Shown here: one piece after another, positions 2,759-40,919 of the stretch | How the letters are laid out: each line of letters starts with the position of its first letter | How positions within the stretch are numbered: position 1 is the stretch's first letter | Source of the DNA: Shigella virus Moo19 | Reading direction: 5' to 3' (one strand) | Sequence record: MZ358387 | Length of the DNA stretch: 64,000 nt | Program-made: the position numbers and the translations under genes | The notes under the pieces: model-generated | Seen by the model: the letters and a program-made list of their open reading frames with translations, nothing else | Told to the model about the DNA's origin: nothing | Databases searched by the model: none

Positions 2759-2959
2759 ATGAAATTTTCTGATTTACTCTGGGCAATTCTATTCCTGTTA
2801 CTTACTGCCTTTATTTATGGGGTAGTACTGCCTAATGCAGTATCTGCTTCAGATAGTATAAGTGTAGTAATTGGATTGATTGTTTCTATTATGTGGCCTG
2901 TTATAGCAGGTCGTGTTGTTTACCTTATCGTTAAGAAACGGAAGAAGAAACATGCGTAA
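2759..2959 (+). CDS. small membrane protein with two predicted TM helices
   Basis: ATG 2759 downstream of terminator 2704-2731. Two hydrophobic helices ('LLWAILFLLLTAFIYGVVL', 'VVIGLIVSIMWPVIAG') and a basic tail. Overlaps the next gene by 8 nt. Confidence 0.45.
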   Translation: MKFSDLLWAILFLLLTAFIYGVVLPNAVSASDSISVVIGLIVSIMWPVIAGRVVYLIVKKRKKKHA

Positions 2960-3788
2960 ATTTATTATAGGTTGTTTACTGGCAATAGTTGCAATGGCTA
3001 GTCTTACTGGTTGTTATCAACGAGTAGAGCCAGGTAATGTAGGTATTATCGTTAACCGTTTGGGTGACGATAAGGGCGTTGACCAACAAGTAAAAGGCGT
3101 AGGCCGTTACTGGATTGGTTGGAATGAAGACCTGTATACGTTCCCGACATTCAAACAGATGAAAACCTACGACGATAAGTTTTACTTCCAACTGTCGGAC
3201 GGTACTCAAATTGGCCATCAACTGGCTATCAGCTATAAGGTCAACCCGACCAAAGTAGCGACCATCTTCCAGACCTACCGTAAAGGTGTCGATGAAATCA
3301 CTGACCAGGATTTACGTCAGCGTATTGCCGATATCCTGAACCGTCAGGGTAACCTGATTAACACTGACAAGTTCATTGACGGTGGTAAGTCACGTTTGCT
3401 GGATAGTGTAGCTGATGCAGTTAAAAAAGAGATGGAGCCAGTCGGTATCGACATTATGGCTATCTCCTGGGTAGGTGCACCGGAATACCCGGACAACGTG
3501 AAGCGTGCAATTAACGCGAAAGTTGAAGCTACCCAGAAAACCCTGCAACGTGAGCAAGAAGTGCAACAGCGTATCGCTGAAGCAAATATGGCTCGTGAGC
3601 AAGCCAAAGGTGAAGCTGATGCCGTAGTACTGAAAGCAAAAGCAGAAGCTGATGCTATTAAGCTGCGTGGTGATGCACTTCGTGAAAACCCTGGTGTAAT
3701 GGAACTGGAAGCAATCAACAAGTGGAATGGTGTATTACCAACCACAATGATTCCAGGTGCAGCCACACCATTTGTGCCTGTTAAATAA
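2952..3788 (+). CDS. SPFH/band-7 (HflC/prohibitin-like) domain lipoprotein
   Basis: ATG 2952. Signal peptide with canonical lipobox 'MRKFIIGCLLAIVAMASLTGC'. SPFH-type core followed by an Ala/Glu/Lys-rich coiled coil ('QREQEVQQRIAEANMAREQAKGEADAVVLKAKAEADAIKLRGDA'). Confidence 0.65.
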   Translation: MRKFIIGCLLAIVAMASLTGCYQRVEPGNVGIIVNRLGDDKGVDQQVKGVGRYWIGWNEDLYTFPTFKQMKTYDDKFYFQLSDGTQIGHQLAISYKVNPTKVATIFQTYRKGVDEITDQDLRQRIADILNRQGNLINTDKFIDGGKSRLLDSVADAVKKEMEPVGIDIMAISWVGAPEYPDNVKRAINAKVEATQKTLQREQEVQQRIAEANMAREQAKGEADAVVLKAKAEADAIKLRGDALRENPGVMELEAINKWNGVLPTTMIPGAATPFVPVK

Positions 3789-3794
3789 CAATAA

Positions 3795-3821
3795 AACCCC
3801 CAGACATTGCTGGGGGTTTTT
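3795..3821 (+). terminator. rho-independent terminator
   Basis: 9-bp GC-rich stem 'aacccccag'/'ctgggggtt' with loop 'acattg', followed by TTTTT. Confidence 0.75.
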
Positions 3822-3837
3822 ACGTCTGGAAAGTGTA

Positions 3838-4188
3838 ATGGAAAAGAACCGCAGGAAGACACTCATTGAGCGTCTGCTTGCCCGTATCAAGATAATGGAT
3901 ATGGGCTATACCGTTAATGGTCAGCCAAGCCTATGCCACATCTGGACTGGTTCCCACTCTGGGAATGGTCGAGGTGGTCAATATGGCAGGATTTCCGTGA
4001 ATGGAGTTACCTCTGCTACACATATTGTGGCCTATACCCACTATCACGGTTACATCCCTTGCAAAATGCAGGTAGACCATCTCTGTAATAACCGTCTGTG
4101 CTGTAACCCGGAACATCTCGAACTGGTGACTCACCAAGAGAACCAGAGAAGAAGAGCTGCACGCCAAACTAAAGGTAAAAAGAAATGA
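3838..4188 (+). CDS. HNH homing endonuclease
   Basis: Start placed at ATG 3838 because the upstream in-frame ATG lies across the terminator. Motif 'HIWTGSHSGNGRGGQYGRISVNG...VDHLCNNRLCCNPEHLELVTHQEN'. Confidence 0.7.
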   Translation: MEKNRRKTLIERLLARIKIMDMGYTVNGQPSLCHIWTGSHSGNGRGGQYGRISVNGVTSATHIVAYTHYHGYIPCKMQVDHLCNNRLCCNPEHLELVTHQENQRRRAARQTKGKKK

Positions 4189-4355
4189 TGAACTATTTAG
4201 GTGGTATTACTCTTGGTTGGCTTATTACCGCATTAGTTTTTGTATATCTGCCAGATGAGCATATTGCTAAAGCAAAAGCCATGAAAGAAACTTGCGAACA
4301 AAAACTTTCTCGTGAGCAGCAATGTGTAATGCAATTCGTACCGGAGAAAAAATGA
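4185..4355 (+). CDS. small membrane protein (56 aa), not in the ORF track
   Basis: ATGATG at 4185 overlaps the HNH stop codon (ATGA). One TM helix 'GGITLGWLITALVFVYL'. Ends TGA 4353-4355. Confidence 0.3.
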   Translation: MMNYLGGITLGWLITALVFVYLPDEHIAKAKAMKETCEQKLSREQQCVMQFVPEKK

Positions 4356-4549
4356 CCTTAACTCGTACTCAACAGTCTACCCTGCGAATGATTGCAGGTG
4401 GTTTAACTCGTGTTGCACCGAATAACAAAACAGCCCTTGCTTTGAAAAAAGCAGGGCTGATTACATTCAATCCACCTTTCGGGTGGGTATGTACTAAAGC
4501 TGGTCTTGAAAAGAACCAGGAACTGATAGGTATGCGTAAGCCTACCTGA
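4352..4549 (+). CDS. hypothetical protein
   Basis: ATG 4352 preceded by GGAG at 4343-4346; the ATG at 4322 in the ORF track has no RBS. Confidence 0.35.
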   Translation: MTLTRTQQSTLRMIAGGLTRVAPNNKTALALKKAGLITFNPPFGWVCTKAGLEKNQELIGMRKPT

Positions 4550-4577
4550 TAATTAATTCCCTAACAGGAGATGCAAA

Positions 4578-4922
4578 ATGAGTGACCGTACTCCCTCAAC
4601 TGATGCCCTGGAAACTCTCGGCATGATTCACTTCAAACCGGAACATCGTGACGCTATTCACTTAGCTGTTGAACCAGTTAAAGCAGGATTGCCACTGTCA
4701 CCCGGTGAACGCATTGGTATCGTGGATGGCTTTGCTTATCCGGCTGGTTATAAACTGGTACTGGAAAACAAAGCATTGGTAGTCCCTTACCACGGAATTG
4801 TTGACCCATTCCTGCCTAAAGGTGTTATTACACCAGGCAAATCCTTCTGGTTCGTAATGGCTCCACGTATGGTTACATCTCTACGTCATGTCTGGTCACA
4901 CCCGGAGTTCCCTGATGAGTGA
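4578..4922 (+). CDS. hypothetical protein
   Basis: Strong RBS AGGAG 4566-4570 with 7-nt spacer to ATG 4578. Confidence 0.5.
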   Translation: MSDRTPSTDALETLGMIHFKPEHRDAIHLAVEPVKAGLPLSPGERIGIVDGFAYPAGYKLVLENKALVVPYHGIVDPFLPKGVITPGKSFWFVMAPRMVTSLRHVWSHPEFPDE

Positions 4923-5274
4923 ACCATTAGATATTAATGATACCGGGCTGTGTGAAGCACTGCTCATCATGGGCGACGAAAAAGCCGTAGCCTGGGCATG
5001 GATTCGAGGTTATACCAAGAATCTGCTACAACAAATCGAAGAGTATCTCGGTGACACAGACTATAAATATCAGTCCAATGTCATTGAAGATGAATACGAC
5101 TTAATGGAACTCGCTGACGGTCACCAAAATGGTAACTGGGGCGATTACATGATTGTCGGTGGACTCTTTGAAGGTGAAAGAATTGACCCAACTTTTTGGA
5201 ACAAATATGCCCTCGTCCGTGGTATTCCTCGTGAAGAAATTTCAGAAAGTAATCTCTTCTCTTGCTCCTGTTAA
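4915..5274 (+). CDS. hypothetical protein
   Basis: ATG 4915 preceded by GGAG 4904-4907; overlaps the upstream stop by 8 nt. Acidic. Confidence 0.45.
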   Translation: MSEPLDINDTGLCEALLIMGDEKAVAWAWIRGYTKNLLQQIEEYLGDTDYKYQSNVIEDEYDLMELADGHQNGNWGDYMIVGGLFEGERIDPTFWNKYALVRGIPREEISESNLFSCSC

Positions 5275-5285
5275 GGAATGAAATA

Positions 5286-6341
5286 ATGTCAAACATCGAT
5301 TCACTTGTCGTGTGTAACTCAAGACAAGCTCGTAAATTTATCATCCGTGCATTGCAGGCAGGTAACGTACCGTTCCTGACCTCCTCACCCGGTATGGGTA
5401 AATCTGCAATGATTCATAGCATTGCAGAAGAATTTGGCATGAAGCTGATTGACCATCGTCTGTCTACTTCTGCCCCAGAAGACCTGTCTGGTCTGCCACG
5501 TTTCCGTCCAGATGGACGTGCAGAGTTTGCACCGTTTGCAGACCTGTTCCCACTGGAGGGTGACGAAGTACCCGAAGGTTATAACGGCTGGCTCCTATTC
5601 CTTGATGAGTTCAACTCAGCCAAGAAAGAAGTTGTTGCTGCTGCATACAAACTGATTCTCGACCGTATGACTGGTCAGAAGAAGCTGCATCCTCAAGTGA
5701 TGATTGTATGTGCTGGTAACAAACAAACTGACCGTGCAATCGTTAACCCAATGGGTACTGCAATGCAGTCTCGTGTTGTGCATCTGGAAATGGAAATCAA
5801 CTTCGACATCTTTGTCGAAGACGTAATGATTCCTCAGAAATGGGATGAGCGTTTAGTTGCATTCCTCCATGCTAATACGTCGTATCTGCATGACTTCGAC
5901 CCGGCACACAAGAACAAAACGTTCTGCTGTCCTCGTACCTGGGACTTCGTTAACGAAGACCTAAAGAACCAGCCTCCTGGTGCTCTGCCTGATGAAGATT
6001 CTATCTTCTATGCTGGTCACGTCACTGCTGGTAAGGCAACTGAGTTCGTTCAGTTTACTCAGGTATATAACCAACTGGTCACTATTGAGCAAGTGGTTAA
6101 AGACCCTAAAGAGGCACGTTTACCGAAAGATAACAACCTCTGCTGGGCAACTGTTACCTATCTGGCTAATAAGACCACGGTAGATAACTTCCCGGATGTA
6201 GTTGAGTATATCCAGCGTCTGGATAAGATGACTCACCGCATCCTGTACTTCCGTACTGTGCATAAAATCGTACCAGATGTTACTGGCCTCCCTGAATGGC
6301 GTAAAGCTGGTGCAGAACTGTCTCGCTACCTACACGGATAA
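5286..6341 (+). CDS. MoxR-like AAA+ ATPase
   Basis: ATG 5286 after AGGA. Walker A 'SSPGMGKSA'; MoxR-type Walker B/sensor 'LLFLDEFNSA'. Confidence 0.65.
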   Translation: MSNIDSLVVCNSRQARKFIIRALQAGNVPFLTSSPGMGKSAMIHSIAEEFGMKLIDHRLSTSAPEDLSGLPRFRPDGRAEFAPFADLFPLEGDEVPEGYNGWLLFLDEFNSAKKEVVAAAYKLILDRMTGQKKLHPQVMIVCAGNKQTDRAIVNPMGTAMQSRVVHLEMEINFDIFVEDVMIPQKWDERLVAFLHANTSYLHDFDPAHKNKTFCCPRTWDFVNEDLKNQPPGALPDEDSIFYAGHVTAGKATEFVQFTQVYNQLVTIEQVVKDPKEARLPKDNNLCWATVTYLANKTTVDNFPDVVEYIQRLDKMTHRILYFRTVHKIVPDVTGLPEWRKAGAELSRYLHG

Positions 6342-6344
6342 AAC

Positions 6345-7517
6345 ATGAACCAGATACCTCAGCACACTTTGACCGACGAGCAACTCATGCGAGAGTATGA
6401 CCGTACTCAGGCTCAGGCTTTTCTGGGCAAGAGTGCTGCGTTCTTTGGCTCACTACTGTGTAGTCTTAAATTCTCCTGGCAACGGGAGAATTGCGATACC
6501 GCTCAGACCGATGGTACTGAGCTTCAGTTTAACCCTGACTTCTTTGTCTGGTTAAAGCCTGAAACAAGAAAGACCGTGCTTATGCACGAGCTTTGGCATG
6601 TAGGTTATCTGCATGGTGTCCGTCAGGGTTCTCGTGACCCAGAGTTCTGGAACTATGCCTGTGACATCTACATTAACAACCAGTTAGAAGACGACGGCTA
6701 CTCCTTCGAGGGAGTAGAGAACTGCTGGAAAGACCCAAAATATAAAGGTTGGGTCGAAGAGGATATTTACGATGACCTTATGAAGAATCCCCACAAGAAG
6801 CCGAAGGCATTGGGGGCATTTGGAACAGGGTCTGGTGGAGATATGGTTAGCCCCACTTCGGGTTCATCTCCTGCAACTATCGTCAACAACGTAGTACGTG
6901 CACTGCAACAACAAAAACTGGCTGGTGGCACACTAGCTGGTACTGGTGCAGGCCGTATGCAAGAGGTGATTACCCAATTCCTCAAGCCAGTAGTTCCGTG
7001 GCAGCAAGTCCTGTTCGACTTCTTCACTGACATTGATGACACCAAGTACACCTGGGCAAGACCTAATCGTCGTTACCCGGATATGTACCTGCCATCTCTG
7101 GAAGATGATGAAGGTCGCTTACGACATCTGGCCTATTTCGAGGATGTCTCTGGTTCCATTAGCAATGCTGACTCTCTGCGTTTTAACTCAGAAGTGGCCT
7201 ATGTTAAGAGCCAGTTTAATCCGAAGAAAATGACCCTACTCACTTTCGATACTGTTATTCAGGACGAAATCGATATCACCGAAGAGGATACCTTTGAGGA
7301 GATTAAGATTACAGGCCGTGGAGGTACTTGCCTCAAGCCTGTTCGTGAGTGGATTATCAAGAACAAGCCAACTGCTGCTATCATCTTCTCTGATATGCAC
7401 GTTGCACCTATGGAAGAACTCCCGTTTGATATACCTATCATCTGGGTTTGTTTGGGAAACCGACATGCCACCGTGCCTTTCGGTGAAATCTTACATATTG
7501 ACCCAGGAATGAAATAA
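6345..7517 (+). CDS. VWA-like protein with N-terminal HExxH metallopeptidase-like motif (DUF2201-like partner of MoxR ATPases)
   Basis: Starts 4 nt after the ATPase gene. 'LMHELWHVGYLH' motif near the N-terminus; C-terminal half resembles a VWA/MIDAS-type domain ('YFEDVSGSIS'). Confidence 0.5.
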   Translation: MNQIPQHTLTDEQLMREYDRTQAQAFLGKSAAFFGSLLCSLKFSWQRENCDTAQTDGTELQFNPDFFVWLKPETRKTVLMHELWHVGYLHGVRQGSRDPEFWNYACDIYINNQLEDDGYSFEGVENCWKDPKYKGWVEEDIYDDLMKNPHKKPKALGAFGTGSGGDMVSPTSGSSPATIVNNVVRALQQQKLAGGTLAGTGAGRMQEVITQFLKPVVPWQQVLFDFFTDIDDTKYTWARPNRRYPDMYLPSLEDDEGRLRHLAYFEDVSGSISNADSLRFNSEVAYVKSQFNPKKMTLLTFDTVIQDEIDITEEDTFEEIKITGRGGTCLKPVREWIIKNKPTAAIIFSDMHVAPMEELPFDIPIIWVCLGNRHATVPFGEILHIDPGMK

Positions 7518-8023
7518 TGGTTTTAAACGGAAATGCTCTGTATCGTTCGTCTCAACTGCTGGATGTCCCAGACCGTAAGGTATCCGAGCATGGTGTAAGC
7601 TATGGATTGGGTGAAGCTGGTTATGATATTCGTATCAAACAAGACATCACCTTCTATCGCTTATTTGGGTTGATTCCAATGGTGAAAACTGTCGATGGTG
7701 AGACGGTAACTCGTCGCTTCGGTAAGTTCGCATTGGCTTCAGCAATTGAGAAGTTCAATATGTCTCCGTCCTGTGTAGCTATCGTTCACGATAAGTCTAC
7801 CTGGGCAAGACGTGCATTATCAGTGTTCAATACCGTGATTGAACCAGGATGGAAAGGGTATCTTACTCTCGAACTGGTCTATCATGGTCGTAAGAAACTG
7901 CATATCCCGGCTGGTGCTGGGATTGCACAAGTGCTGTTCCATCTGGTTCAAGAACCTGCCCATTACAATGGGAAGTATCAGAACCAGGAAAACCAACCTG
8001 TCGCTGCAAGAAGCAGCAAATAA
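7517..8023 (+). CDS. dCTP deaminase/dUTPase-fold protein
   Basis: TAATG overlap with the upstream gene. Motif 'VFNTVIEPGWKGYLTLELVYHG' matches the dCTP deaminase/dUTPase beta-barrel signature. Confidence 0.55.
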   Translation: MVLNGNALYRSSQLLDVPDRKVSEHGVSYGLGEAGYDIRIKQDITFYRLFGLIPMVKTVDGETVTRRFGKFALASAIEKFNMSPSCVAIVHDKSTWARRALSVFNTVIEPGWKGYLTLELVYHGRKKLHIPAGAGIAQVLFHLVQEPAHYNGKYQNQENQPVAARSSK

Positions 8024-8032
8024 GGAATTACC

Positions 8033-8230
8033 ATGTCTGTATTTACTACTAAAGTTGGCGGTGTAAAAGTTACTGTTGTTGCTGCAAATGTTGCATTTGT
8101 ACGCGATATCGAAGGTAAAGGTGAACTGAACTTCGTATCCGGTCTGCAACTGCAAACTGAAGTCGGTTATGACTCTGTACGTCGTAACGTAGCTAAAGCA
8201 CTGTCAGGGGCTGAAGCAGAAGCTGAATAA
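8033..8230 (+). CDS. hypothetical small protein
   Basis: AGGA then ATG 8033; 65 aa. Confidence 0.45.
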   Translation: MSVFTTKVGGVKVTVVAANVAFVRDIEGKGELNFVSGLQLQTEVGYDSVRRNVAKALSGAEAEAE

Positions 8231-8251
8231 GTAGCAAGTGCTTACCTTAAT

Positions 8252-8270
8252 AGCCCTGCAATGCAGGGCT
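8252..8270 (+). other. perfect hairpin (terminator-like, weak U-tract)
   Basis: 'agccctgca a tgcagggct' inverted repeat right after the 8033..8230 gene, followed by 'atttg'. Confidence 0.3.
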
Positions 8271-8272
8271 AT

Positions 8273-8288
8273 TTGTGGAAGTTCCTTC
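8273..8288 (+). promoter_or_regulatory. 16-nt repeated motif TTGTGGAAGTTCCTTC, copy 1 (candidate promoter/operator)
   Basis: Exact 16-nt match to 8597-8612. Contains the near-palindrome GGAAGTTCC. Lies 8 nt upstream of the SD (8296-8300) of the Imm-like gene. Confidence 0.35.
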
Positions 8289-8306
8289 AATAACTCAGGA
8301 GTCTTA

Positions 8307-8567
8307 ATGGAAGTTTTATCTGCATTACTGGTTCTGGTAATTGCTCTTACAGCTTATCTGTTACCAACTATCATCGCATTCGTTCGTGGTCATGCTTCTA
8401 AGTGGGGCATTTTTATCACTAATTTACTGTTGGGCTGGTCACTGATTTTCTGGATTGTTGCACTGATTTGGTCACTGTCCAATAAAGGACAATCTCAGAC
8501 TACAATCGTTAACGTTGGAAGTGGTAACAGCTACAACGTGTCTCAAACGAGTCAGTCTGATAAGTAA
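8307..8567 (+). CDS. superinfection-immunity-like small membrane protein (Imm_superinfect-type)
   Basis: AGGAG 8296-8300 then ATG 8307. Two TM helices with the family-typical pattern 'YLLPTIIAFVRGHASKWGIFITNLLLGWSLIFWIVALIWSL'. Confidence 0.55.
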   Translation: MEVLSALLVLVIALTAYLLPTIIAFVRGHASKWGIFITNLLLGWSLIFWIVALIWSLSNKGQSQTTIVNVGSGNSYNVSQTSQSDK

Positions 8568-8596
8568 CTAACCTAAGCATCATTTAAAAGTGGTGC

Positions 8597-8612
8597 TTGT
8601 GGAAGTTCCTTC
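8597..8612 (+). promoter_or_regulatory. 16-nt repeated motif TTGTGGAAGTTCCTTC, copy 2
   Basis: Exact repeat of 8273-8288; here a full 5-bp stem/3-nt loop 'GGAAG TTC CTTCC'. Lies between the Imm-like gene and terminator 8641-8667. Confidence 0.35.
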
Positions 8613-8640
8613 CAGCTCATTGCTTATCCATGCGTAACCC

Positions 8641-8667
8641 AAAGCCCACTTAATCGTGGGCTTTTTT
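8641..8667 (+). terminator. rho-independent terminator
   Basis: Stem 'aagcccac'/'gtgggctt', loop 'ttaatc', then TTTTTT. Confidence 0.7.
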
Positions 8668-8682
8668 AATTTAGGTACTCTT

Positions 8683-9144
8683 ATGTCAGTCGTTAAAGGT
8701 TCATGGTCTGCCCGATACCCTAACTTAATGAATATACCCCGTGGCTCAGGTAAGTCAGTACTAGTAGGAATGGACTTTTCTAGTTTGGAAGACCGTGCAG
8801 CAATAGCTATACGTGATGGTAAATCTGCAAGAGTTATATCAGTATCGCCTACAGGTCGTATAAAAGATGACGCTATAGATGCGATGCTTATGCAAGCTCT
8901 ACAACATAACCTGTCTGGAACAAAAGCTGACTGGTACACAGTAGATGACTTGTATACACCCCCTAAACCACACTGCATGTCCCAAGTGCATGACATTATT
9001 GATAGCTTCTGGTCTGCCCCGGCACTGGGATTATATGGGCAATATATTGCTCAGTTAGACAAGAAGCCAAAAACCAAAGATGTTTTTAAAGGAAAAAGCA
9101 CTACTCACCATTACCCCTGGTATAGAAGAGGAAGCAAATACTAA
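8683..9144 (+). CDS. hypothetical protein
   Basis: Start set at ATG 8683, downstream of the terminator that occupies the upstream part of the ORF. Confidence 0.45.
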   Translation: MSVVKGSWSARYPNLMNIPRGSGKSVLVGMDFSSLEDRAAIAIRDGKSARVISVSPTGRIKDDAIDAMLMQALQHNLSGTKADWYTVDDLYTPPKPHCMSQVHDIIDSFWSAPALGLYGQYIAQLDKKPKTKDVFKGKSTTHHYPWYRRGSKY

Positions 9145-9146
9145 TA

Positions 9147-9593
9147 ATGCGTATCCCATTCTTAAACAAAAGGAAAAGGGTTCCAACCCTGTTTCAAAAG
9201 GGAATTGAAGACGAGTTCGCTCTTAACCGTAAAGCACAGCAATACATCGTAACTTTGTTCACTGGTGCAAAGGTAGATGCAGAAATGCAGCTTACTTTCA
9301 TATTTGAACAGCTATTCATCGTGTACAATCTCGCCTTGTTTACTGGCTCTCACGAAGTGAGTGATTGTGCACGAGAAGCCCTCCGTAAGCTCCGTGGTGA
9401 GTTTGAAAGACTACATGCCAGCTTTCCCTTCACTATGGATGCAGTCGCCTCTGTGAACTGCTCAAAGGCTCTGGCAATGGGTATACCCATTTTGCAAGAA
9501 CTACCTCGTAGTGAATTTAAGTTGGCTTATGTGCAAGCCCGTAAGCTAACGGAGTCCAAACAAACCCTAATCTATTTAGAGAACCTACGATGA
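9147..9593 (+). CDS. hypothetical protein
   Basis: ATG 9147, 2 nt after the upstream stop; ATGA overlap with the next gene. Confidence 0.5.
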   Translation: MRIPFLNKRKRVPTLFQKGIEDEFALNRKAQQYIVTLFTGAKVDAEMQLTFIFEQLFIVYNLALFTGSHEVSDCAREALRKLRGEFERLHASFPFTMDAVASVNCSKALAMGIPILQELPRSEFKLAYVQARKLTESKQTLIYLENLR

Positions 9594-10534
9594 TTAAAGC
9601 AGAAGTAATTGCTGATAGTCTTCATGAGAAGACAGGCACTCGCATTACCACGTTTGAACTGGTTTACCCACGTTTCATTCACAGTGAGTTTATGACTCAC
9701 CGCATCTTCAACCGTAATGCTTCAAGCAGTCGTGCAATTCCTACCGACCGTTTTATTGAACAGGTGCGTACTGACCCTGTATTCCCAAGCTATTGGGGTA
9801 AGAACCAGAAAGGGATGCAGGCATTTGAAGAACTGTCTGAAGACCAACGTAGTGATGCAATGTTTATCTGGGACCAGGCTGCGTCCAGTGCTGCTACCTA
9901 TGCAGAAATGCTGCGTCGTGGACAAGTCCATAAGCAGATTGTTAACCGCATTCTGGAACCGTTCACCCATATCCGTGTGGTAGTTACATCCACTAGCTGG
10001 ACAAACTTCTATGGTTTACGTGACCATGAGGATGCCCAACCGGAAATCCGTTTACTGGCTCAGGCCATGAAGAAGGCTCATGAAGAATCTGTTCCGCAAA
10101 AACTCAAGAAAGGTGACTGGCATCTGCCTTATATTCGTGGTGCTGATTGTGCTAACGCTTACAATCATTGCAAATATCAACGAATTACAAGGGATGAACC
10201 AGGTAATGAGGAAATTTTAGGCTTACTGCTTAAAGTTTCTGCTGCTCGTTGTGCTCGTGCCTCCTATAACAACTTCGAAGGCAAGCCATCTACTATCAGT
10301 GATGACCTTGACCTCTTCGCTAAGTTGGTAGAGAAACAGCCAATTCATGCCTCACCTACTGAGCATCAGGCTACACCGATGGACTTCAGTACCAAGTACG
10401 TTAATAACTCAAACCCAGCAACCTGGGAACAGGGTGTTACCTCTATGGATAGGGAGGGTAATCTCTACTCCGGTAACCTGCTGCACTTCGTCCAATTCCG
10501 TAAACTCATCCCCGGCGAAACAATCACTGCGTGA
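9590..10534 (+). CDS. ThyX-like (flavin-dependent thymidylate synthase-like) protein, tentative
   Basis: Motif 'HSEFMTHRIFNRNASSSR' resembles the ThyX 'RHR-x7-S-x-R' signature. Motif-level only. Confidence 0.35.
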   Translation: MIKAEVIADSLHEKTGTRITTFELVYPRFIHSEFMTHRIFNRNASSSRAIPTDRFIEQVRTDPVFPSYWGKNQKGMQAFEELSEDQRSDAMFIWDQAASSAATYAEMLRRGQVHKQIVNRILEPFTHIRVVVTSTSWTNFYGLRDHEDAQPEIRLLAQAMKKAHEESVPQKLKKGDWHLPYIRGADCANAYNHCKYQRITRDEPGNEEILGLLLKVSAARCARASYNNFEGKPSTISDDLDLFAKLVEKQPIHASPTEHQATPMDFSTKYVNNSNPATWEQGVTSMDREGNLYSGNLLHFVQFRKLIPGETITA

Positions 10535-30412: not shown

Positions 30413-33400
30413 TTAGTTTACCAGATTCATCCAAGGGTTGAGGTTATGAGCACGTAAGCCCTGACCCAATCCGATAGAGTAATCCAGTCTACCATCAGCA
30501 GCAGCCGAGAACAGGTTATCCTGTAATGGCAGACCAACGTTACCAAACATGGTAGGAGTTGGAGCCAGCATAGCCATAGCTGCATGAACAGGGTTATTAC
30601 GAATCATGGACACTGCAACTTTAGTAGAACGAATCTTAAAGTTATAGAACCACATCAGACCCATGCTTTCCATGTAACCACGGAAACGACCCGGCAGACG
30701 GTCATAGTTAATGAACTCTTCGGTAACACGACCCAGAGCTTCTTCCTTACTCTTACCTTTACGCTTAGTCAGTTCATCATAGATGATTGCTTTAGCAATA
30801 AAGTCAGAGTACTCAACCGTCTTCTGGATACCCTGGAACAGAGCAGTATCCTTAGTGATAAGTGCATAACGACCAGCAGTTTGCAGCTTCTTAGGCAGCT
30901 TATCTGCTAAACGCTGCATGTACTCCTGTACCTTACCATCCGGGATTAACAGGTCATCACGAGAGATACCAGCATCAGCAATAGAAGAGAACTCACCAGC
31001 TTCCAGCAAAGGCCAGATACTCATACGCTTATAGCTATCATTGATGGACTGAATCTCAGCTTTCAGTTTACGAGCCTGGTTCGGATTAGTAGTTGCACGA
31101 AGTTCTGCTTCAGCATCAACCTGGCGAAGACGAGACTTCATATACTGGTTAATCTCAGCAGTCTTCTGAGGGATACCTTTAGCAATATCCTTAACTGGAA
31201 CACCACGGGCAACCATCTGATAGAGGTTAGCCAGGAAGTTCACAGCAGGAACCACGAGAGACTTGACCACGATTAAGGTCTTAGCCTCACGTACAACCGT
31301 CTGAGTGATATTCTCACCCTGCATAAAGTATTTGTATGCACGGTTGCCAAATACGCCCAGCATTGCTTTCTTGAAGGTATCCAAAGTCTCAGGTGACCAA
31401 CGAGAGTTACCAGTCCATACATCACCAACAGAAGCAGCACGATAACCAAGTGCATCATTCAACATGTCACGACGTACCCACAGTTCACCATTACCAAACA
31501 GTGACTCAGCTTTCTGACGAGTTTCTGCATTCATCAGACGCATAGCATCAGCAGTAACTGGGTCAAGTTTAGAACCAAGAAGGTTAATGTACTGGCTCTT
31601 ATTGCTGGTAGAATCTGCCATGTCCTTCTCGTACATAGCGTGAAGATTTTCAATCAGAGCATCGTTAAACTTCTGGGCTTTAGCTTCTTCTACCTGACGA
31701 CCTCGCCATACACCAATTGCTTTAGCAAGGTTATCCTCACCAGCAATGTGAGTCAGCATGTTAGGGTCAATAGAGTGCTCATAAGCAACCACACGACCAT
31801 TGCCATCATAGATAGGCATCAGTGGTTCATTACCACGTTCACCCTTCGCCAGAGCTTTGGTGATACGGTCAACGGAAGGCTTGTCAGTAATACGACCAGC
31901 AACCATTGTTCCCATTGTGAAGCCAGTACCAACATCCACACCACCAGCAGTATTACGAACGTTCTGGAGAATACCCTGTGAGTATGGAGCACGAGCAGCA
32001 ACCGGGCTGAAGTAGTAACCACGACTACGAGTACGTTCACCAGAGCTACCCTGATAACCAGCAATACGAGTGAATGACTTCTCACTCAGTTCGTTAAACT
32101 GGCTGTCTTCTGCAACAATCAGGTTAACACCCTGCTTAGTCTCAGAAGGAATGTAGCCTTTGTAGTGGTTCAAACGAGCACGGTCATCATTCTGTGCTTT
32201 ACGTTTCTCTTCCACACGCTGGCCTACCAGATAGGAAGTGACAAAGTCCATACCTTCGGTTTCAGTCTGAGCCAGGGAAGCTAATGCCTCACGGTCAGCC
32301 TGACTCATTGCTTCGATGGCATACAGAGTAATCAGCTTGTCTAAGGTGTCCACATCAACGGTAGATTTAACGCTGGTACGCTCACCTAACAGACGGGAGA
32401 TTGCCTCAGCATTACGCAGCAGGTTGTTACCGACAGTACCATTAATCATGTACTGAGCCAGTTGCTTAGACTTACGGTTAATCAAAGGCCAGTTACGTCC
32501 TGCCTGATTCTGGAGGTCAGCTTCCAGCTTATTAACCAGCTTATCCATTTCTTTCTGTGAAGACAGCAGGTCACGAATTTCACCCAGACTCATGGTGTCA
32601 CGCAGTACAGCAAGGTCAGTTTTACCCATACCAGTGTGCATAGCTTTCCACTCTGCATCAGTCAGCTTACGGCTGAACTTAGAAGCAATAGTGGTAGGCA
32701 GATGCTCACGGAATTGCTGACGGTCAGCCTGTACCTGAGAGCGAACAGCTTTAATCATGTCATAGACAGAAGCATTCGACTTAGTACGACCTACGATGTC
32801 ATTAACCAGGTCATAGAAAGGTTGCCATGCTTTTCCCTGGTTCATTGCAGCCATAACACCCTGTGCAACTTTCTCACCGTTCTTCTCAGTAGCAATAGCA
32901 GCTACCAATTGAGCAGCATGAGCAGTTGCCTTAACCAGTGGGTTCTTAGCATTAGCAGCAACATCACGAGCAGTATCCAGTGTGGCATCAGCCAGACGTT
33001 CTACACCATCAACAATATATTGGTTAGCACGGTCAATCATATTCCCAGTTGGGGTAGCAACAGAGTCATAGAAGGACTGAGCATTCAGGCTGGATTCCAT
33101 AATAGTTTCTGCCAGAGCATCAATACCTTCCTGAACGTTAGTTGCTTTGGTATCACCAGCAACACGCTTGTTCAGGCTATCCATTGCAGCTACGCCAATG
33201 TTAGTCAGCATTGCATCAATAGTATTACCGGATGCTTTATCTGCTTTCATAACAGGCATGTCAGTCAGTACGTTACGTACCTCTTCGCTTACCATTGCCA
33301 GACCAACAAAGGTAGGCAGTAAGGAAGAACGACCCTGAGCATCAAACTCAATATTGTTAGCACCCATCAACGTATCGAACTTCTGTTGAGCATAGTAACG

Positions 33401-36400
33401 GTCAGCAGGGTTAGTGCTGTTCGGGTCTGCCATGAAGTCTTCTACTTTCAGGTTCTTGGTAACGTGAGTGTAATACTCCTGAGCACGAGCCAGAGCAGCA
33501 GGATGAATTGCAGCCTCAGTTGCTAGTGCAGCAACAATGTTGGTGAACAGACGACGTTCTTGCATGTTCATAGTAAAACCATGCCCCTGAACATCACGAG
33601 TTACCTTAACTGCATTCACTACTGCGTCAGAGAATTTACCCTTACGCATATGTTGCTGTACCGGGTCATTACCCAGGTAGTTCGTAATGAGACGGTCAAA
33701 GGTTTGACCCAGTGAAGTAAGACGGTCATTGTTGCCATAAGCAGTGCTATGGAACAGGGTAGCCTCAGCAGTAACCGGAGCAACCGGAGGCTGTGAACGC
33801 ATCACTACAGCAGAGTTAAACAGCAGACCGGAGAACATATCTTCACCGTAAGCAGGGGCTTTCTTACGACCAAAAATGAGGCGTTTAATTGCTTCATAAA
33901 CATCTTTAACCATCCTGGTAAGAGCAGTGGTTTTCTTCTGCTTCTTAATCAGTTCATGGTTGGTTAAGCCCCATGCCATGTACTCATTCAGTGCAGCAGC
34001 TTTAGCCATTGCTGGGTCAATGAAACCGTTGGACAGATGACCATTGATAGTATCCAGTGCATCAGCGTAAGCCTCACGCATAGCCGGAGTATCTTTGGAT
34101 ACATCCAGACTACGGAACTGTTCCATCAGATTCTCGATGTTCTGTACAGCTTCATTGGTCTGGCCTTGATAGTGGTCAAGTACAGTCTCAAAAGTAGAAG
34201 CATGAACCAGTTCATGAATCAAGGTTTCCATTGATGGGCTAACCAGGTAGACAGTCTTATCTGCAAAGTTAGTCCAACCATAGATATTACCTGCATTTGC
34301 AGCTTCAATATCTTCTGGAGCAGGACGCTCTACGTTACGTTCCATTGCATACTGGTCAATCTGGTTCACGTTACCGTAAACAACCTTGTAGCCTTTAGCA
34401 GCCAGTGACTTCTGAATCTCATTCAGTACAGCAGCCTGTTCAACAGGAAGGTTGGACTCTTTAGCCAGTTTGTTAATAGCAGTCTGAGACAGCACACGAA
34501 CACCAGACTTCAGAGCACGGCCTACAGTATCAAACTTATTAGTATCGGCTACTGGAGTCTTCTCAGCTTTACGAGCCTCTTTACGAGCCTGCAATTCAGC
34601 ATCGAATAGCTCATTCAGTTTTGCTACTTGCTGGTCAACAGTCAGACCATCCAGAGAGATATTACCGTTGTTCACATAAGGGGAACCAACAGCAGCCATC
34701 TGGTCAACAGTAGTCTGTACCTGGTTCATTACCTTGTGACGGATATCGACACCCAGAGCAATGTTACGCAGGTTACGCTCAATAAGATTAACACCTGCTT
34801 TCTCAATCATATCAATCTTATACTGCCTGTCACCATCAACACGACTGATATGAGAAAGTTGTTCAAAATCCAAAGCAGAACGGGCAATACTATCAATTGC
34901 TTCATCTGATAACTTATTGAAATCTACATTTTTTACAAACTTAGAGAAGGAGTCATACACATTCTTGATAGGGTTACCCTGCCATGAAGTGTATACAGCT
35001 TCGTTAGCCTTACGGCTTGCATCAGTGATGTCATTGATACCGATGTTCATACCATCAAAGATTTTGAGAGTATTTTTCGGTGCACCTTTCATAATAGAAA
35101 GGGTCTGCATCATCATGCCGTCACCAGTACCAATCGTCATGAAAGGAATACCAGCAACACCAGCTTGTGACGGTGCATAGATGCTCATTGGCACACGCAT
35201 ACGGTCATCAAAGTTGGTAGCCAGAACCTGGTTAGCAACATCAGTATTCTCAGAACCAGCAATGTAGAAAGTCTGGGAACCAGTCTCAATCATTGGAGCT
35301 AAGTCAGACAGTGAAGCCTGAATATCGTTAAGCTCTTTCTGAGTTAAGAAGTCACCCTTCTTCCAGTTAGGGTCTTTTTCTTTTTCTGCCAGCTTCTCCT
35401 GGACACGTTGCTGGAACATGTCTTGCAGAACCAGAGACTGAATCTGGGTAGCTTTCTGAAGCTGTTCAGTGGAGTGCATCAGCCCTTCACCAACAGTATT
35501 CTGAATACCCTGTCTCATTGGTTCAACGAAAAAGTGCAGCATGTTCTCTTGCAGAGACTTCAGTTGCTCACCTTTGACAGTGAACTTCTGAGGGTCAATC
35601 TTGCCAGACATAGCAGTACCAGTGTCTTCAAGAGACAGTTTACCTTTACGCATAACTGGAACAGTACCAGTCAATGCTTTCATGTCTTCAATGAAACGAC
35701 CGAGCATAGCCTCAGCATCGGCCTCAGATGCTGCCTGCTTGCCGAACATTGCCATAGCCGGGGAAATGTCCGGGTTCTGTGCACGGGCTTGCAGAACGTC
35801 GCTGAAGCGTTCGTAGATGGCATCAGTAATTGCACTCACCATCTTGCCTGCAATACCACGAGCACCGGAACCATAAATGGTAATGGTCAGTGGGTTCTTG
35901 GCAATGCCACGTTTCAGTTCGAGGTTGCCTTCTTCATTGATGTTATAGTCAGGAATGAACAAGTCCATCAGAGAGGACAGATGATTCATCTGAGTATTAA
36001 CAGCCGGGTTATTGGCATAGGTATTTCGCAGGTTAGTCAGTGCAGCTTTCAGACCGTTAGTGGATGCTTCGTACAGGTCAACGCTATCGTCAATAGAACG
36101 ATGTTCGTTCATCGTCTTACCAGCACGACCAAAGAATAGACCACCCTTAGCAGTATTCTGTACCCATTCTTTGGTGAACTTACCACCAGTCATCAGCATC
36201 ATTGCGTTAATCGGACCGTTGGTTACACCATCAGCCTCAACGTACAGTGGAGTGTTGAACTTAGACTTGTCTTCAGCATTCAGGTAACGGGCATACTCCA
36301 TCAGAGCCATGAGAGCTACGAAGGATTTATCACCACCCAATGCAGTATTCAGAATCTCAACAGAGTTATCTGGCAGGTTCCCAGTTTTATCGAAATCAAC

Positions 36401-39400
36401 CATCATATCGACAGCAGGTTTCAAATTGCCTTCCAGTGCAGCAGTCAGTTTTGCTGACATTGCCTCACGAGACATGTTGTGAACCTTGATGCCCAATGCC
36501 TGAGCCAAGCCAACCTGGAAATCAGAGAAGGTCTGTGAGTTTTCATTGGACAGGTCAATAGTAGAAAACGTAGGCAGAATAGCTTCACGAACCAGCTTAC
36601 TGGACTGAGGATTATTCTTACCAAGCATCTGCATACGACCAACACGAGTCATGTTGTAGGCATAGTGGATTGGAGTTTCCAGTCCGTTTTCCTGTGCACG
36701 AGTTTGCTCTACCACACTAAACAAGGAATCATAAGCCATAGCTACTGACAGGTTTTTACCTTCCAGTGACTTAGCAGTATTCACATTCAGCAGTTCAGGA
36801 TTAAGCGTACCAGCACCCATCAATTCCAGAATCTTGTCACGACCCATAGCCTCATAGAAGTTAACCATAGGTTCATGAATACGGAACTCAGTAGCCTGTT
36901 CTGCTTTCAGAGCAGCTTTCTGTTCCGGGGTATTCTTAACAGCAGGGTTGCGTAACTGAGTCTGAGCCACAGAAGGTACGTCGTCACCGAAGTACATTTT
37001 CTCTTCTGGTTCTACCAACACAGCTTCTTCAATTGCTGTAGGGAATTTATTGATAGGGTCATTGTCTGCCAGCTTATCAATGGTATACAGACCAACAGTC
37101 TTAGTGGAGTCTGGGTCAATTTCAGAGACATCTAGCATAGTCTCAGTAACTTCACCTGCTTCAATAAGAGCAGACAGAATCTCAGTTGCCATAGCAACAG
37201 GGATACCTTTGGTATAACCCAGTGGTGCATTAGGGTTACGGTCAAAGCCCCAGTAAGATTCAATTTTCTGAGCCAGTGAGTTAGTAGCTTCAACGAGAGT
37301 CTGAGCATTCTCAAACATCTCAACTACACCTTCCGGTAACAGAGCCTGTTCAATACCAGTAATAGCAGCCACGTCTTTAGCATCTTTAACGGCAGCATTC
37401 TGAGTAGCAGTCAGTCGCCATTGCAGACCAGCAAGTACGGCAGTTTCAAGCAGAGAATCGTTGAACTTAAAGCTATTGCCATCTGGTTCAACAATATTCA
37501 GCAGCTTACCACCAACCCAACGGTTAGCTTCAGTGCCCTCAGCAAAACGCTTACCTACGTTCTTGTTAGACAGGAACTTAGCCAGTCGGTCATTCAGAAT
37601 GGATTTAATGTTTTCACCCGTGTTCATCAGGTCTTTATAACGACCAGATACATCAGGGGTAAGAGCAGTATTCTCACTCTGAGTAAACGTTTCGAAACGT
37701 GCATTAGAAGACAGAGCCTGACCAATATCTTTCATTGGAGACTCGGAACCAGTGGTACGAGACTTAGGTTCAGCAGGTAATGAGTAAGCAATCTTGAGGT
37801 AATTTTTTACCCCAGGCTGGCTGACATCAGTACTCCCAACCAAATCAGGATAAGCAGCGTCAATACCACTACGAGTGGATTCCACTTCATTAGTAGTTTC
37901 CTCAGTATTTTCAGTAACATCCTCGATGCTACCCTCATTGATGAGGGTAGCATCCTTTGCCTTTTCGGATTGAGGCTTAGTTACTTTCTCTGGTTCTGCC
38001 TTAGACTCAGTAAAAGGAGCACTATTTTCTACCGTCGATTCCCTATTAGGAGTTACAGTAGGTGCAGCCTCCTGAGTTTGTGCAGGAGTTTCGTCAACTT
38101 GATTCACTGGTTCATTAGTCTGTTGGGATTGAGCAGCGTCAAGATTGCCCTGACGGAACTCTTTAACCACCTGGGCAGCAGGCTTGTCCAGACGTGAATC
38201 CAATGAGGTAACATTGATATGAGAAACGTTAAGCTCCGGGTAAGCCGTAGCAAGTGCATTAGCAATATCAGCTACGGTTTTGGCTTCCAGTCCTACTTGC
38301 TGGGCAAACTTAACCGACTTGGTATCGTAAGGATTAACACCGAGTCCAGTACGACTTCTTACCCATTCACGGGAAGGGGTGAGGGCTTGGTAATGGACAG
38401 ACTTATTCTTATCCGCATTCCCAGAAATCAGATGTTCATTCAACGCTCCGACCTTGTTCTGCATGTGCTGGGCGAACTGCATAAAGTCGCTCAAATAAGC
38501 GGAAGCCAAATCGAAGTTACCAGAGTTATACGCAGACCGAATGCGTTTAGCATGTTGCAACGCAGAGTACTGGCCTTCATTAGAACGAGACTCGTCGGTT
38601 TTAATCTGTTTACCCACAATGTCTTGAGGCCGTAAACCAAGCTGTTCAGCTTTGGTATCAAACTCACGTGCTCCCTGTAATAGAGCAGCAGCGGATTGCA
38701 GGGCAGCACGTTGACGATTGTTCAACGTAATCTTGCCTTCACTCGCATGTTTCAGAACCATGTTCACTGAATCAGCGTCCAGTACTTCCGGGCTTACGTC
38801 AGCAGCCATTGCTACGTTGTTAGCCTGATTCTGGTCTGCTACATCTTCGGTCACATTCAGATTACCTTGTTCAGCTTGTTCCTGAATCATGGAATGAATG
38901 GCACGGAATGCACGAAGTACCTTTGGAGTATTCTGGATGTTAGCCATCAGACCCGAATACTGGTCGAGCACAGCATTAGCAGGACTATCTTTAGGCAGAT
39001 TGTTCAGTGCAGCAGGGTCACGGTTAACGAAGTCTTCCATCTGCATAACCATGTCGTACATATTGGCAGCAGCTTCCATCATCTGGTTCGGGTCTTCAGT
39101 AGTGTTAACTACATCAGCCAGTTTCTGGATTACCTGAACTCGGTCAGTGGAACCGTTAACAGCTTCCTGAACCACAGGAGAAGCATCAGCAAATTCTTCC
39201 GGGTTAATACGGGTAGCATTAACCAAATCACTTGCATACTGGTGTGCAGCAGCCTTCTCTTCAGGAGAGATGTCCATTGCTTCAACAGCATCAGCCATAG
39301 TTGCCTGAGCAGTATCTGCTTGTGCAGCAGCTTCCTGAGCAGCCTCAGCTACTTTAGCGTCAGCAACAGGAGAAGCCTCTTCATTGCGTCGTGCAACTTC

Positions 39401-40852: not shown

Positions 40853-40919
40853 AGCTTGTTTCCTGTTCAAACTTATATCTATAAGAGAACTCACTGTACA
40901 TTAAGTGAGGGTAAGAAAA

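Follow-up and report, generated by a model that had tools for sequence, protein, structure and literature searches.

A MoxR-like ATPase and a zincin-VWA protein encoded side by side in Shigella virus Moo19, orthologues of phage N4 gp24 and gp25

The closest described relatives of the genes treated here are genes 24 and 25 of phage N4. In the core set of N4-like phages their products are listed as "24 unknown" and "25 vWFA domain", and both genes belong to the middle transcripts (PMC4193335). A putative AAA ATPase and a vWFA protein had already been annotated in 2009 (PMC2784036), and the combination of a MoxR ATPase with a metallopeptidase-vWA protein was described for jumbo phages in 2021 (PMC7824862). 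The pair analysed here lies in a stretch of 64,000 nucleotides from Shigella virus Moo19 (sequence record MZ358387), called the window below. It encodes an AAA+ ATPase (gp24-like) and a protein that joins a putative metallopeptidase domain of the zincin type to a VWA domain (gp25-like). Genes, domain content and core status can all be found in published work and in many GenBank entries, so the pair as such is known. The present analysis adds new support of two kinds: the invariance of the motifs across diverged relatives, and the joint travel of the two genes, seen in 36 of the 37 loci examined.

The window is an N4-like phage genome (Schitoviridae, Gamaleyavirus-like). Over the pair, nucleotide identity is 82% to Escherichia phage Jgk1 and about 78-79% to the Gamaleyavirus-type coliphages St11Ph5, IME11 and ECBP1; phage G7C is matched at the protein level only (82% amino acid identity). 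Hidden Markov models (HMMs) built from the homologues match N4 gp24 with an E-value of 2e-178 and gp25 with 2e-194, and the pair is therefore orthologous to N4 gp24/gp25. The domains are the same, and the genes of the window follow the order of N4 gp16-gp39. Shared neighbours are the SPFH lipoprotein, HNH endonuclease, dCTP deaminase, ThyX, rIIA/B, helicase and DNA polymerase. The genome type is also the same, with a virion RNA polymerase of about 3,500 residues, and sequence divergence is the sole difference. Between distant N4-like genomes the module is as conserved as RNAP2 and the helicase, at 51% identity compared with 51% and 47%.

A homologous two-gene architecture of MoxR AAA+ ATPase and metallopeptidase-vWA protein is found in the group 2.2 jumbo phages (Iyer et al. 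2021, PMC7824862). Muenster, phAPEC6, GAP32 and Atu_ph07 are matched by both window proteins, although identity between the jumbo-phage and N4-like pairs is only about 21-31%. The authors proposed a function in virion assembly and processing, whereas the N4-like pair consists of middle genes in a replication block.

Among cellular systems, CbbQ-CbbO, NorQ-NorD, CoxD-CoxE, RavA-ViaA and midasin combine an AAA_5-clade ATPase with an adaptor that carries a VWA domain and its MIDAS (metal-ion-dependent adhesion site), as the window pair does. They are also structural neighbours of both predicted models. Their adaptors, however, lack a zincin domain, and the client is remodelled or metallated, not cut. 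The phage ATPase, unlike the cellular ones, stays below the Pfam cut-offs for AAA_5 and AAA_3 and has an extra helical C-terminal region of about 130-180 residues. Membership in the CobS/CobT cobaltochelatases or BchI/BchD Mg-chelatases was considered and rejected: there is no NCBIfam match, only a weak match of the P-loop region to PHROG 249 (E 2e-5).

Another related arrangement is found in the bacterial vWA-MoxR ternary systems (Kaur et al. 2020, PMC7159879). There MoxR is joined by a vWA protein whose N-terminal "effector" domain is in many cases a peptidase, though seldom a metallopeptidase. The third component of these systems (VMAP, an FtsH-like or a beta-propeller protein) is absent beside the phage pair. 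Ternary systems are variable island genes, whereas the phage pair belongs to a conserved core. Viruses of archaea provide further cases of an AAA+ ATPase beside a VWA/MIDAS protein, namely p618 (a MoxR-type ATPase) and p892 (VWA) of Acidianus two-tailed virus and the AAA/vWA pairs of haloviruses (PMC7911831). These proteins are much larger, with no peptidase domain reported, and are likened to the window pair by layout. Finally, FtsH follows a similar logic, an AAA+ motor feeding an HExxH zincin site. The resemblance is an analogy only: in FtsH one membrane-anchored polypeptide, from another AAA+ clade, includes an M41 protease, and a VWA adaptor is lacking.

Judged from its sequence, the gp24-like protein is an AAA+ ATPase of the MoxR/midasin/dynein clade with its catalytic residues intact (Table 1). 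Across 32 homologues and the relatives from other loci, Walker A, Walker B, N145 of sensor 1 and R163 do not vary, the four Walker A residues P35, G38, K39 and S40 occurring in nearly all of the relatives from other loci. R163 probably acts as an arginine finger or sensor. The preliminary description, a set of notes made from the letters of the window, had assigned the protein to MoxR/AAA_5, and this assignment is supported, though indirectly. The window ATPase scores 26.5 bits with Pfam AAA, and with AAA_5 (PF07728) it reaches only 17.4 bits (N4 gp24: 20.4 bits), both under the cut-off of 22. With AAA_5, the relatives that the family HMM recovered (E 1e-50 to 1e-61) exceed the cut-off at 29.5-45.5 bits; with AAA_3 (PF07726) they reach up to 28 bits, and only one of them passes the cut-off of 27. 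Searches of PDB sequences, whether with the sequence alone or with the profile of its family, gave midasin as the sole match, and the predicted model is nearest to dynein, midasin, CbbQ and NorQ. This evidence indirectly supports a MoxR-like, divergent member of the AAA_5 clade, not MoxR proper.

The most conserved loop of the ATPase is DHRLSTSAPEDLSGLP. Its positions D56, H57, R58, S62, P64, D66, G69, L70 and P71 are invariant among the phage homologues, and nearly all bacterial relatives retain D66-x-x-G-[LIV]-P. The loop lies within an insertion of about 40 residues between strands beta2 (52-58) and beta3 (101-107), with low values of the predicted local distance difference test (pLDDT) at residues 62-71. 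MoxR-clade ATPases have their helix-2 insert at this position, which is here modelled at low confidence. By analogy with MoxR and midasin structures, residues 56-71 may serve as a pore loop.

The gp25-like protein is predicted to combine an HExxH zincin domain with a VWA domain whose MIDAS is complete. Conservation was assessed in 31 phage homologues with identity down to 51%. H81, E82, H85, N103, D107, D267, S269, S271, T328 and D350 are invariant across this set, which together with the Pfam scores of the two domains (Table 1) establishes the HExxH and VWA features of the preliminary description as real. More distant relatives all have H81 and H85, and D107 and N103 are invariant everywhere. 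H90 is present in at least 90%, with D in two sequences and F in one. All full-length relatives retain the D, S, S and T of the MIDAS. E82 is missing only from a chromosomal branch in Campylobacterales (loci L022, L024, L027, L028, L029 and L030), where it is replaced by I, T or V and both histidines, N103, D107 and the MIDAS are kept. The linker just before the VWA domain is likewise conserved: W237, P240, R242, R243, Y248, L249 and P250 are invariant in the phage homologues, and bacterial relatives retain the dibasic pair and [YFI]-[LM]-P. Its pLDDT is low at residues 235-241.

The AlphaFold2 model of this protein (mean pLDDT 78.8) contains, in the N-terminal domain, three short strands, the HExxH helix and a helix at residues 99-116 that carries D107. 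As modelled, this arrangement is the layout of a zincin. The VWA domain is predicted to have the VWA fold and resembles the VWA domains of NorD and BchD; one homologue also matches the CoxE-type VWA family PF05762. A Foldseek search of the PDB gave a single non-VWA neighbour, the minigluzincin selecase (4qhi), as a weak match (E 0.08-0.09, probability 0.87-0.90). Sub-threshold Pfam matches of the N-terminal domains of relatives all fall in zincin families (M48, SprT-like, eCIS_core and PhageMetallopep). Searches of PDB sequences with the protein and its family profile returned nothing meaningful. For the two proteins together, neither an NCBIfam scan, which includes chelatase and maturation families, nor a PADLOC scan gave a match.

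Both proteins retain every residue for ATP hydrolysis, zinc-dependent hydrolysis and MIDAS-type ligand capture, and the catalytic motifs are largely retained in relatives at 23-30% identity. By eye, neither contains an evident stretch resembling a signal peptide or spanning a membrane, as expected of cytoplasmic-type proteins.

Linkage of the two genes was followed in 37 loci. These are N4, the rV5-like phage Murica, 28 matches in species-representative genomes, the cyanophage S-TIM5, two jumbo phages (Muenster and MIJ3), Halo_KS_7, the Aeromonas phage PAc, one conjugative plasmid from Burkholderia and one "plasmid" from Acinetobacter. The loci in which both genes occur include phages, conjugative plasmids and bacterial chromosomes, and in the large majority the ATPase gene lies directly upstream on the same strand. 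Two to four genes intervene between the members of the pair in L033, L036 and L037, and in phage Murica they lie on opposite strands, about 3.6 kb apart. Distribution across related phages had been named as a check in the preliminary description; by tblastn, 681 phage records contain the zincin-VWA protein and 814 contain the ATPase. Both occur in the same lineages, namely Schitoviridae, Vequintavirinae, several jumbo-phage groups and S-TIM5, and depositors of Vequintavirinae already label the ATPase "MoxR ATPase". The whole family comprises 21,509 representatives (50% identity clustering, E <=1e-3). The module is present on 87 plasmids, for example on Burkholderia megaplasmids beside type IV secretion genes, and on an Aliarcobacter chromosome it stands among housekeeping genes.

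In three unrelated phage lineages the pair is followed downstream, at a distance of no more than about 3.5 kb, by a gene for thymidylate synthase: ThyX in the N4-like phages (9590-10534 in the window) and S-TIM5, and ThyA in Muenster. None is annotated near the pair in MIJ3, Halo_KS_7 or PAc. A functional link to thymidylate synthesis was set aside, and the association is treated as synteny at the level of the module.

We tentatively read the pair as a two-component, ATP-driven machine for protein remodelling and cleavage whose client would be handled in the replication phase, and give this reading a probability of roughly 0.45. Its starting point is a set of MoxR-VWA systems, CbbQ-CbbO, NorQ-NorD, RavA-ViaA and midasin (PMC7159879, PMC7911831). 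By comparison with these, the ATPase would assemble as a hexameric ring. The VWA protein would dock on this ring, probably via the invariant helix-2-insert loop, the conserved RPNRR linker or both. The metal ion of the MIDAS would grip an acidic residue of the client protein, and ATP hydrolysis would pull on the client or remodel it. Because the adaptor has a zincin active site of its own, remodelling may be coupled to cleavage, or the peptidase may be activated by ATP gating. The client would reach the zincin domain through the ATPase ring and the MIDAS adaptor.

As client we favour a cytoplasmic host protein or complex, or a phage protein of replication or nucleotide metabolism, and not a virion component. 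The reasons are that the pair are middle genes, sitting in the block for replication and nucleotide metabolism, that the module occurs on plasmids and chromosomes, and that its conservation equals that of RNAP2 and the helicase.

Several points weigh against a remodelling and cleaving machine. We infer the hexamer, the complex, zinc binding, proteolysis and the client, and a literature search found no experiment on gp24/gp25 or on any DUF2201 protein. The zincin fold of the model matches solved structures weakly (E about 0.09). The Campylobacterales branch has lost the catalytic glutamate and kept the metal ligands, so proteolysis is not needed by every member of the family. Lastly, the pairs of S-TIM5 and Muenster lie near genes annotated as virion or head-completion genes, which fits a part in virion assembly.

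Such a part, a virion-assembly chaperone with proteolytic processing of structural proteins, was put forward by Iyer et al. 2021 (PMC7824862) for jumbo phages with this architecture. The p618/p892 pair of Acidianus two-tailed virus offers a parallel. The S-TIM5 pair is flanked by an Hsp20 gene and a gene annotated as virion structural, and a head-completion gene lies about 4.7 kb upstream of the pair in Muenster. To our knowledge no prohead protease is annotated in N4-like genomes, which counts in the same direction. This role nevertheless seems unlikely, because N4 gp24 and gp25 are middle, not late, genes (PMC4193335), and because the window pair stands beside dCTP deaminase, ThyX, helicase and DNA polymerase, with the structural block on the opposite strand about 23 kb away. 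The module also occurs where no virion forms, on conjugative plasmids and at chromosomal housekeeping loci, and it is found in reverse-transcriptase (RT) operons. The rV5-like and jumbo phages, moreover, are large myoviruses that normally have a T4-type prohead protease. Equally to be considered is a chaperone that inserts a metal cofactor or activates an enzyme without proteolysis, the HExxH motif holding or handing over a metal ion. Most characterised MoxR-VWA pairs work in this way (NorQ-NorD, CoxD-CoxE, CbbQ-CbbO, CobS-CobT and BchI-BchD), and the likeness of the ATPase to CbbQ and NorQ, that of the VWA domain to NorD and BchD and the CoxE-type homologue all agree with it. In Campylobacterales H81, H85 and D107 persist where E82 has become I, T or V, so metal binding outlives catalysis there, and the nearby thymidylate synthase genes might be taken as a further hint. 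In all phage, plasmid and RT-linked members, however, E82 is invariant, which is what an active hydrolase would lead one to expect. Nor is there an evident metalloenzyme that could be the client: ThyX belongs to the flavoenzymes, and MIJ3, Halo_KS_7 and PAc lack the thymidylate synthase linkage. With no match to an NCBIfam chelatase or maturation family either, we doubt that the phage pair is a metallochaperone.

The pair might also be a conflict module of mobile elements, either a protease for host takeover or counter-defence, or a superinfection or abortive device, akin to the bacterial vWA-MoxR conflict systems. Its distribution takes in phages (681-814 records), 87 plasmids and a patchy set of chromosomal loci; close relatives share an operon with a retron-type RT, one copy of it beside toxin-antitoxin genes; and in its layout, an effector-vWA protein with MoxR, it resembles what Kaur et al. 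2020 (PMC7159879) described. Yet a universal, highly conserved core gene of Schitoviridae (PMC4193335) is unlike typical anti-defence genes, PADLOC recognises neither protein, and the third component that defines the ternary systems is missing beside the pair, all of which makes this explanation rather improbable. An entirely different identity is implied by database labels, according to which the zincin-VWA gene encodes an HNH endonuclease and the ATPase is a generic ATPase, a clamp loader or a DnaA-like protein. PHROG 1314 is named "HNH endonuclease", and this label stands on RefSeq N4 gp25 (NC_008720) and dozens of phage records. DUF2201_N and DUF2201 explain residues 16-386, the predicted structure contains a VWA fold, and the window has a separate, true HNH_3 endonuclease gene at 3757-4188. 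No HNH Pfam family matches the full protein at E <=0.01 or its N-terminal 172 residues at E <=10. The domain assignments thus refute the HNH label, and there is next to no chance that this identity is correct.

The HNH label may have arisen because HNH genes sit between the ATPase and VWA genes in MIJ3 and pRBH2-3, and the error is widely propagated. MIJ3 has the wrong label "DNA repair ATPase", APECc02 that of a "putative anti-sigma factor", and the ATPase of MY01 is mislabelled "DnaA protein". Clamp loader, DnaA and DNA repair ATPase were rejected as readings; they come from database labels that no domain supports.

The genes gp24 and gp25 are two of about 14 common to all N4-like phages, which are widely isolated for phage therapy. 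They are the only N4-like core genes that have clear enzyme motifs yet no assigned role; the preliminary description had called the role in a lytic phage unknown, and as far as literature searches go this holds. Solving their function would annotate many genes of phages, plasmids and chromosomes and explain a conserved step of infection. The window pair gives no new handle on function beyond N4 or G7C. Invariant residues such as E82, D267/S269, E108 and D66 are ready targets for mutagenesis and substrate trapping.

The locus itself is compact. A MoxR-type ATPase gene beside a gene for an HExxH/VWA protein is what the preliminary description had reported, and both open reading frames lie where it placed them, with domains and motifs supported; SPGMGKSA, LFLDEFNSA and MHELWH are all present (Table 1). 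The spacer is 3 nucleotides (aac, 6342-6344), not 4 as had been given. The ATPase gene starts with ATG at 5286, eight bases downstream of AAGGA at 5273-5277, and stops with TAA at 6339-6341. The zincin-VWA gene runs from ATG at 6345 to TAA at 7515-7517, and its stop shares one base with the ATG of the dCTP deaminase-like gene (TAATG); these two genes are probably in the same transcription unit.

Table 1. Positions of the two genes, their motifs and the next gene downstream in the window
Feature	Position	Strand	Remarks
AAA+ ATPase gene, 351 amino acids	5286..6341	+	N4 gp24 orthologue; divergent member of the MoxR/midasin/dynein (AAA_5) clade
Walker A (P-loop) SPGMGKSA, residues 34-41	5385..5408	+	P35, G38, K39 and S40 invariant in 32 homologues
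Most conserved ATPase loop DHRLSTSAPEDLSGLP, residues 56-71	5451..5498	+	Putative helix-2 insert or pore loop
Walker B LFLDEFNSA, residues 104-112	5595..5621	+	D107 and E108 invariant
Sensor-1 N145 to R163 (QSR)	5718..5774	+	N145 and R163 invariant in all relatives
Zincin-VWA gene, 390 amino acids	6345..7517	+	N4 gp25 orthologue; DUF2201_N and DUF2201 cover residues 16-386
N-terminal putative metallopeptidase domain DUF2201_N, residues 16-252	6390..7100	+	Pfam 218 bits
HExxH motif (H81, E82, H85) in MHELWH, residues 80-85, on helix 72-87	6582..6599	+	Invariant in 31 phage homologues
Candidate third metal ligands H90 and D107 (WNYACD, next helix)	6612..6665	+	Suggested by conservation
Linker motif W-x-RPNRR-x4-YLP, residues 237-250, just N-terminal to VWA	7053..7094	+	Recognised by conservation
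C-terminal VWA domain DUF2201 ("VWA-like"), residues 262-386	7128..7502	+	Pfam 122.6 bits
MIDAS DxSxS, D267-V-S269-G-S271	7143..7157	+	Completed by T328 (7326-7328) and D350 (7392-7394)
dCTP deaminase-like gene (N4 gp26 orthologue)	7517..8023	+	Pfam DCD 60.8 bits; context only

The flanking genes of the pair are a 128-residue open reading frame without Pfam match and the dCTP deaminase gene. Genes in N4 order lead from RNAP2, an Ig-like protein, the SPFH lipoprotein and the HNH_3 endonuclease to the pair, and continue with dCTP deaminase, an Imm-type superinfection protein, ThyX, rIIA/B and helicase. No strong terminator-like hairpin was found on the + strand from about 3820 to 8641, which puts the pair and dCTP deaminase together in a single stretch free of terminators; downstream of it come ThyX, helicase and DNA polymerase. 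The same stretch contains, at 8238-8567, a gene for a 109-residue membrane protein that matches Pfam Imm_superinfect (T4 Imm-like superinfection immunity). On the other strand, which also carries the structural block, an open reading frame of 3,493 residues at 30413-40894 is typical of the N4 virion RNA polymerase.

A side observation concerns an RT operon that carries the same module and may be more novel than the pair itself. This conserved four-gene operon encodes an RT protein of about 1,035 residues, a protein of about 340 residues without Pfam match, an AAA_5 MoxR-like ATPase (328 residues) and a DUF2201_N/DUF2201 zincin-VWA protein. The C-terminal part of the RT protein is a retron-type reverse transcriptase with RT_XIII as its best PADLOC match, and its N-terminal 700 or so residues have no Pfam match. 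The operon is found in at least six genome loci (L011, L012, L014, L015, L018 and L026; in L012 at 2884-9209), often with a further gene for about 350 residues upstream. It also occurs on metagenomic contigs in two RT variants, one in L038-L042 and the L012 variant in L043, where it lies beside HigB-like and TacA/TacT toxin-antitoxin genes. Across loci the RT proteins are 34-82% identical. No mention of MoxR, AAA or VWA partners, or of the operon, was found in two published retron surveys, and the operon is possibly an undescribed RT-linked defence system. A bolder reading, for which the odds are low, is that gp24/gp25 would be a targeted unfoldase-protease common to mobile elements and bacterial immunity, the phage core gene and the effector arm of the RT operon sharing one mechanism. 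N4-like, rV5-like and jumbo phages and conjugative plasmids may, under such a mechanism, carry the module so that, once they have entered a cell, it cleaves a protein of the host or of a competitor.

Some individual loci deserve mention. On the 403-kb plasmid bgla_4p of Burkholderia gladioli BSR3 (L036), the module is split by a 230-residue beta-clamp-like gene (DNA_pol3_beta_2) and a 309-residue gene without Pfam match, and it lies directly upstream of VirB11/B3/B4, TraI and TraD genes, as found on conjugative megaplasmids. A. baumannii pRBH2-3 (L037; 75,126 bp, circular, from a clinical isolate) carries genes for an N4-type RNA polymerase, the ATPase and the zincin-VWA protein, and this "plasmid" probably represents the genome of an N4-like phage that was assembled together with the host's. 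The contig JANQNF010000027.1 (L003; 69,347 bp) is 87-96% identical in nucleotides to the window over the aligned stretches and is filed under an "archaeon" metagenome-assembled genome (MAG), probably through a binning error. N4-like blocks with ATPase, zincin-VWA protein, dCTP deaminase, ThyX and helicase also lie inside bacterial contigs, a 727-kb contig of Mesorhizobium yinganensis CN2-181 (L006) and a 296-kb contig of a Roseococcus MAG (L004). The latter also has RNAP2 and the start of the DNA polymerase, and the former starts about 1.6 kb from chorismate synthase and ribBA. These blocks suggest that an N4-like element has integrated or left a remnant, although N4-like phages are considered strictly lytic.

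Among the Campylobacterales loci, L022, L024, L028 and L029 have a gene for a protein of about 236 residues without Pfam match 3' of the VWA gene, and the neighbours in L028 are housekeeping genes (GreA, a permease and a pseudouridine synthase). In S-TIM5 the Hsp20 gene is situated directly 5' of the ATPase gene.

The SPFH/Band-7 gene of the window (2913-3788) is the N4 gp20 orthologue, and its product has a lipoprotein signal (lipobox LTGC). A link between this gene and the pair, suggested by the analogy with FtsH-HflKC, was rejected: the lipoprotein signal makes the protein extracytoplasmic, and N4 gene 20 is outside the list of core genes (PMC4193335). The HNH_3 endonuclease gene follows directly, its GTG-start reading frame overlapping the 3' end of the SPFH gene by 32 nucleotides. 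Since a GC-rich hairpin (3793-3820) falls in this overlap region, the real start of the HNH_3 gene is probably further downstream.

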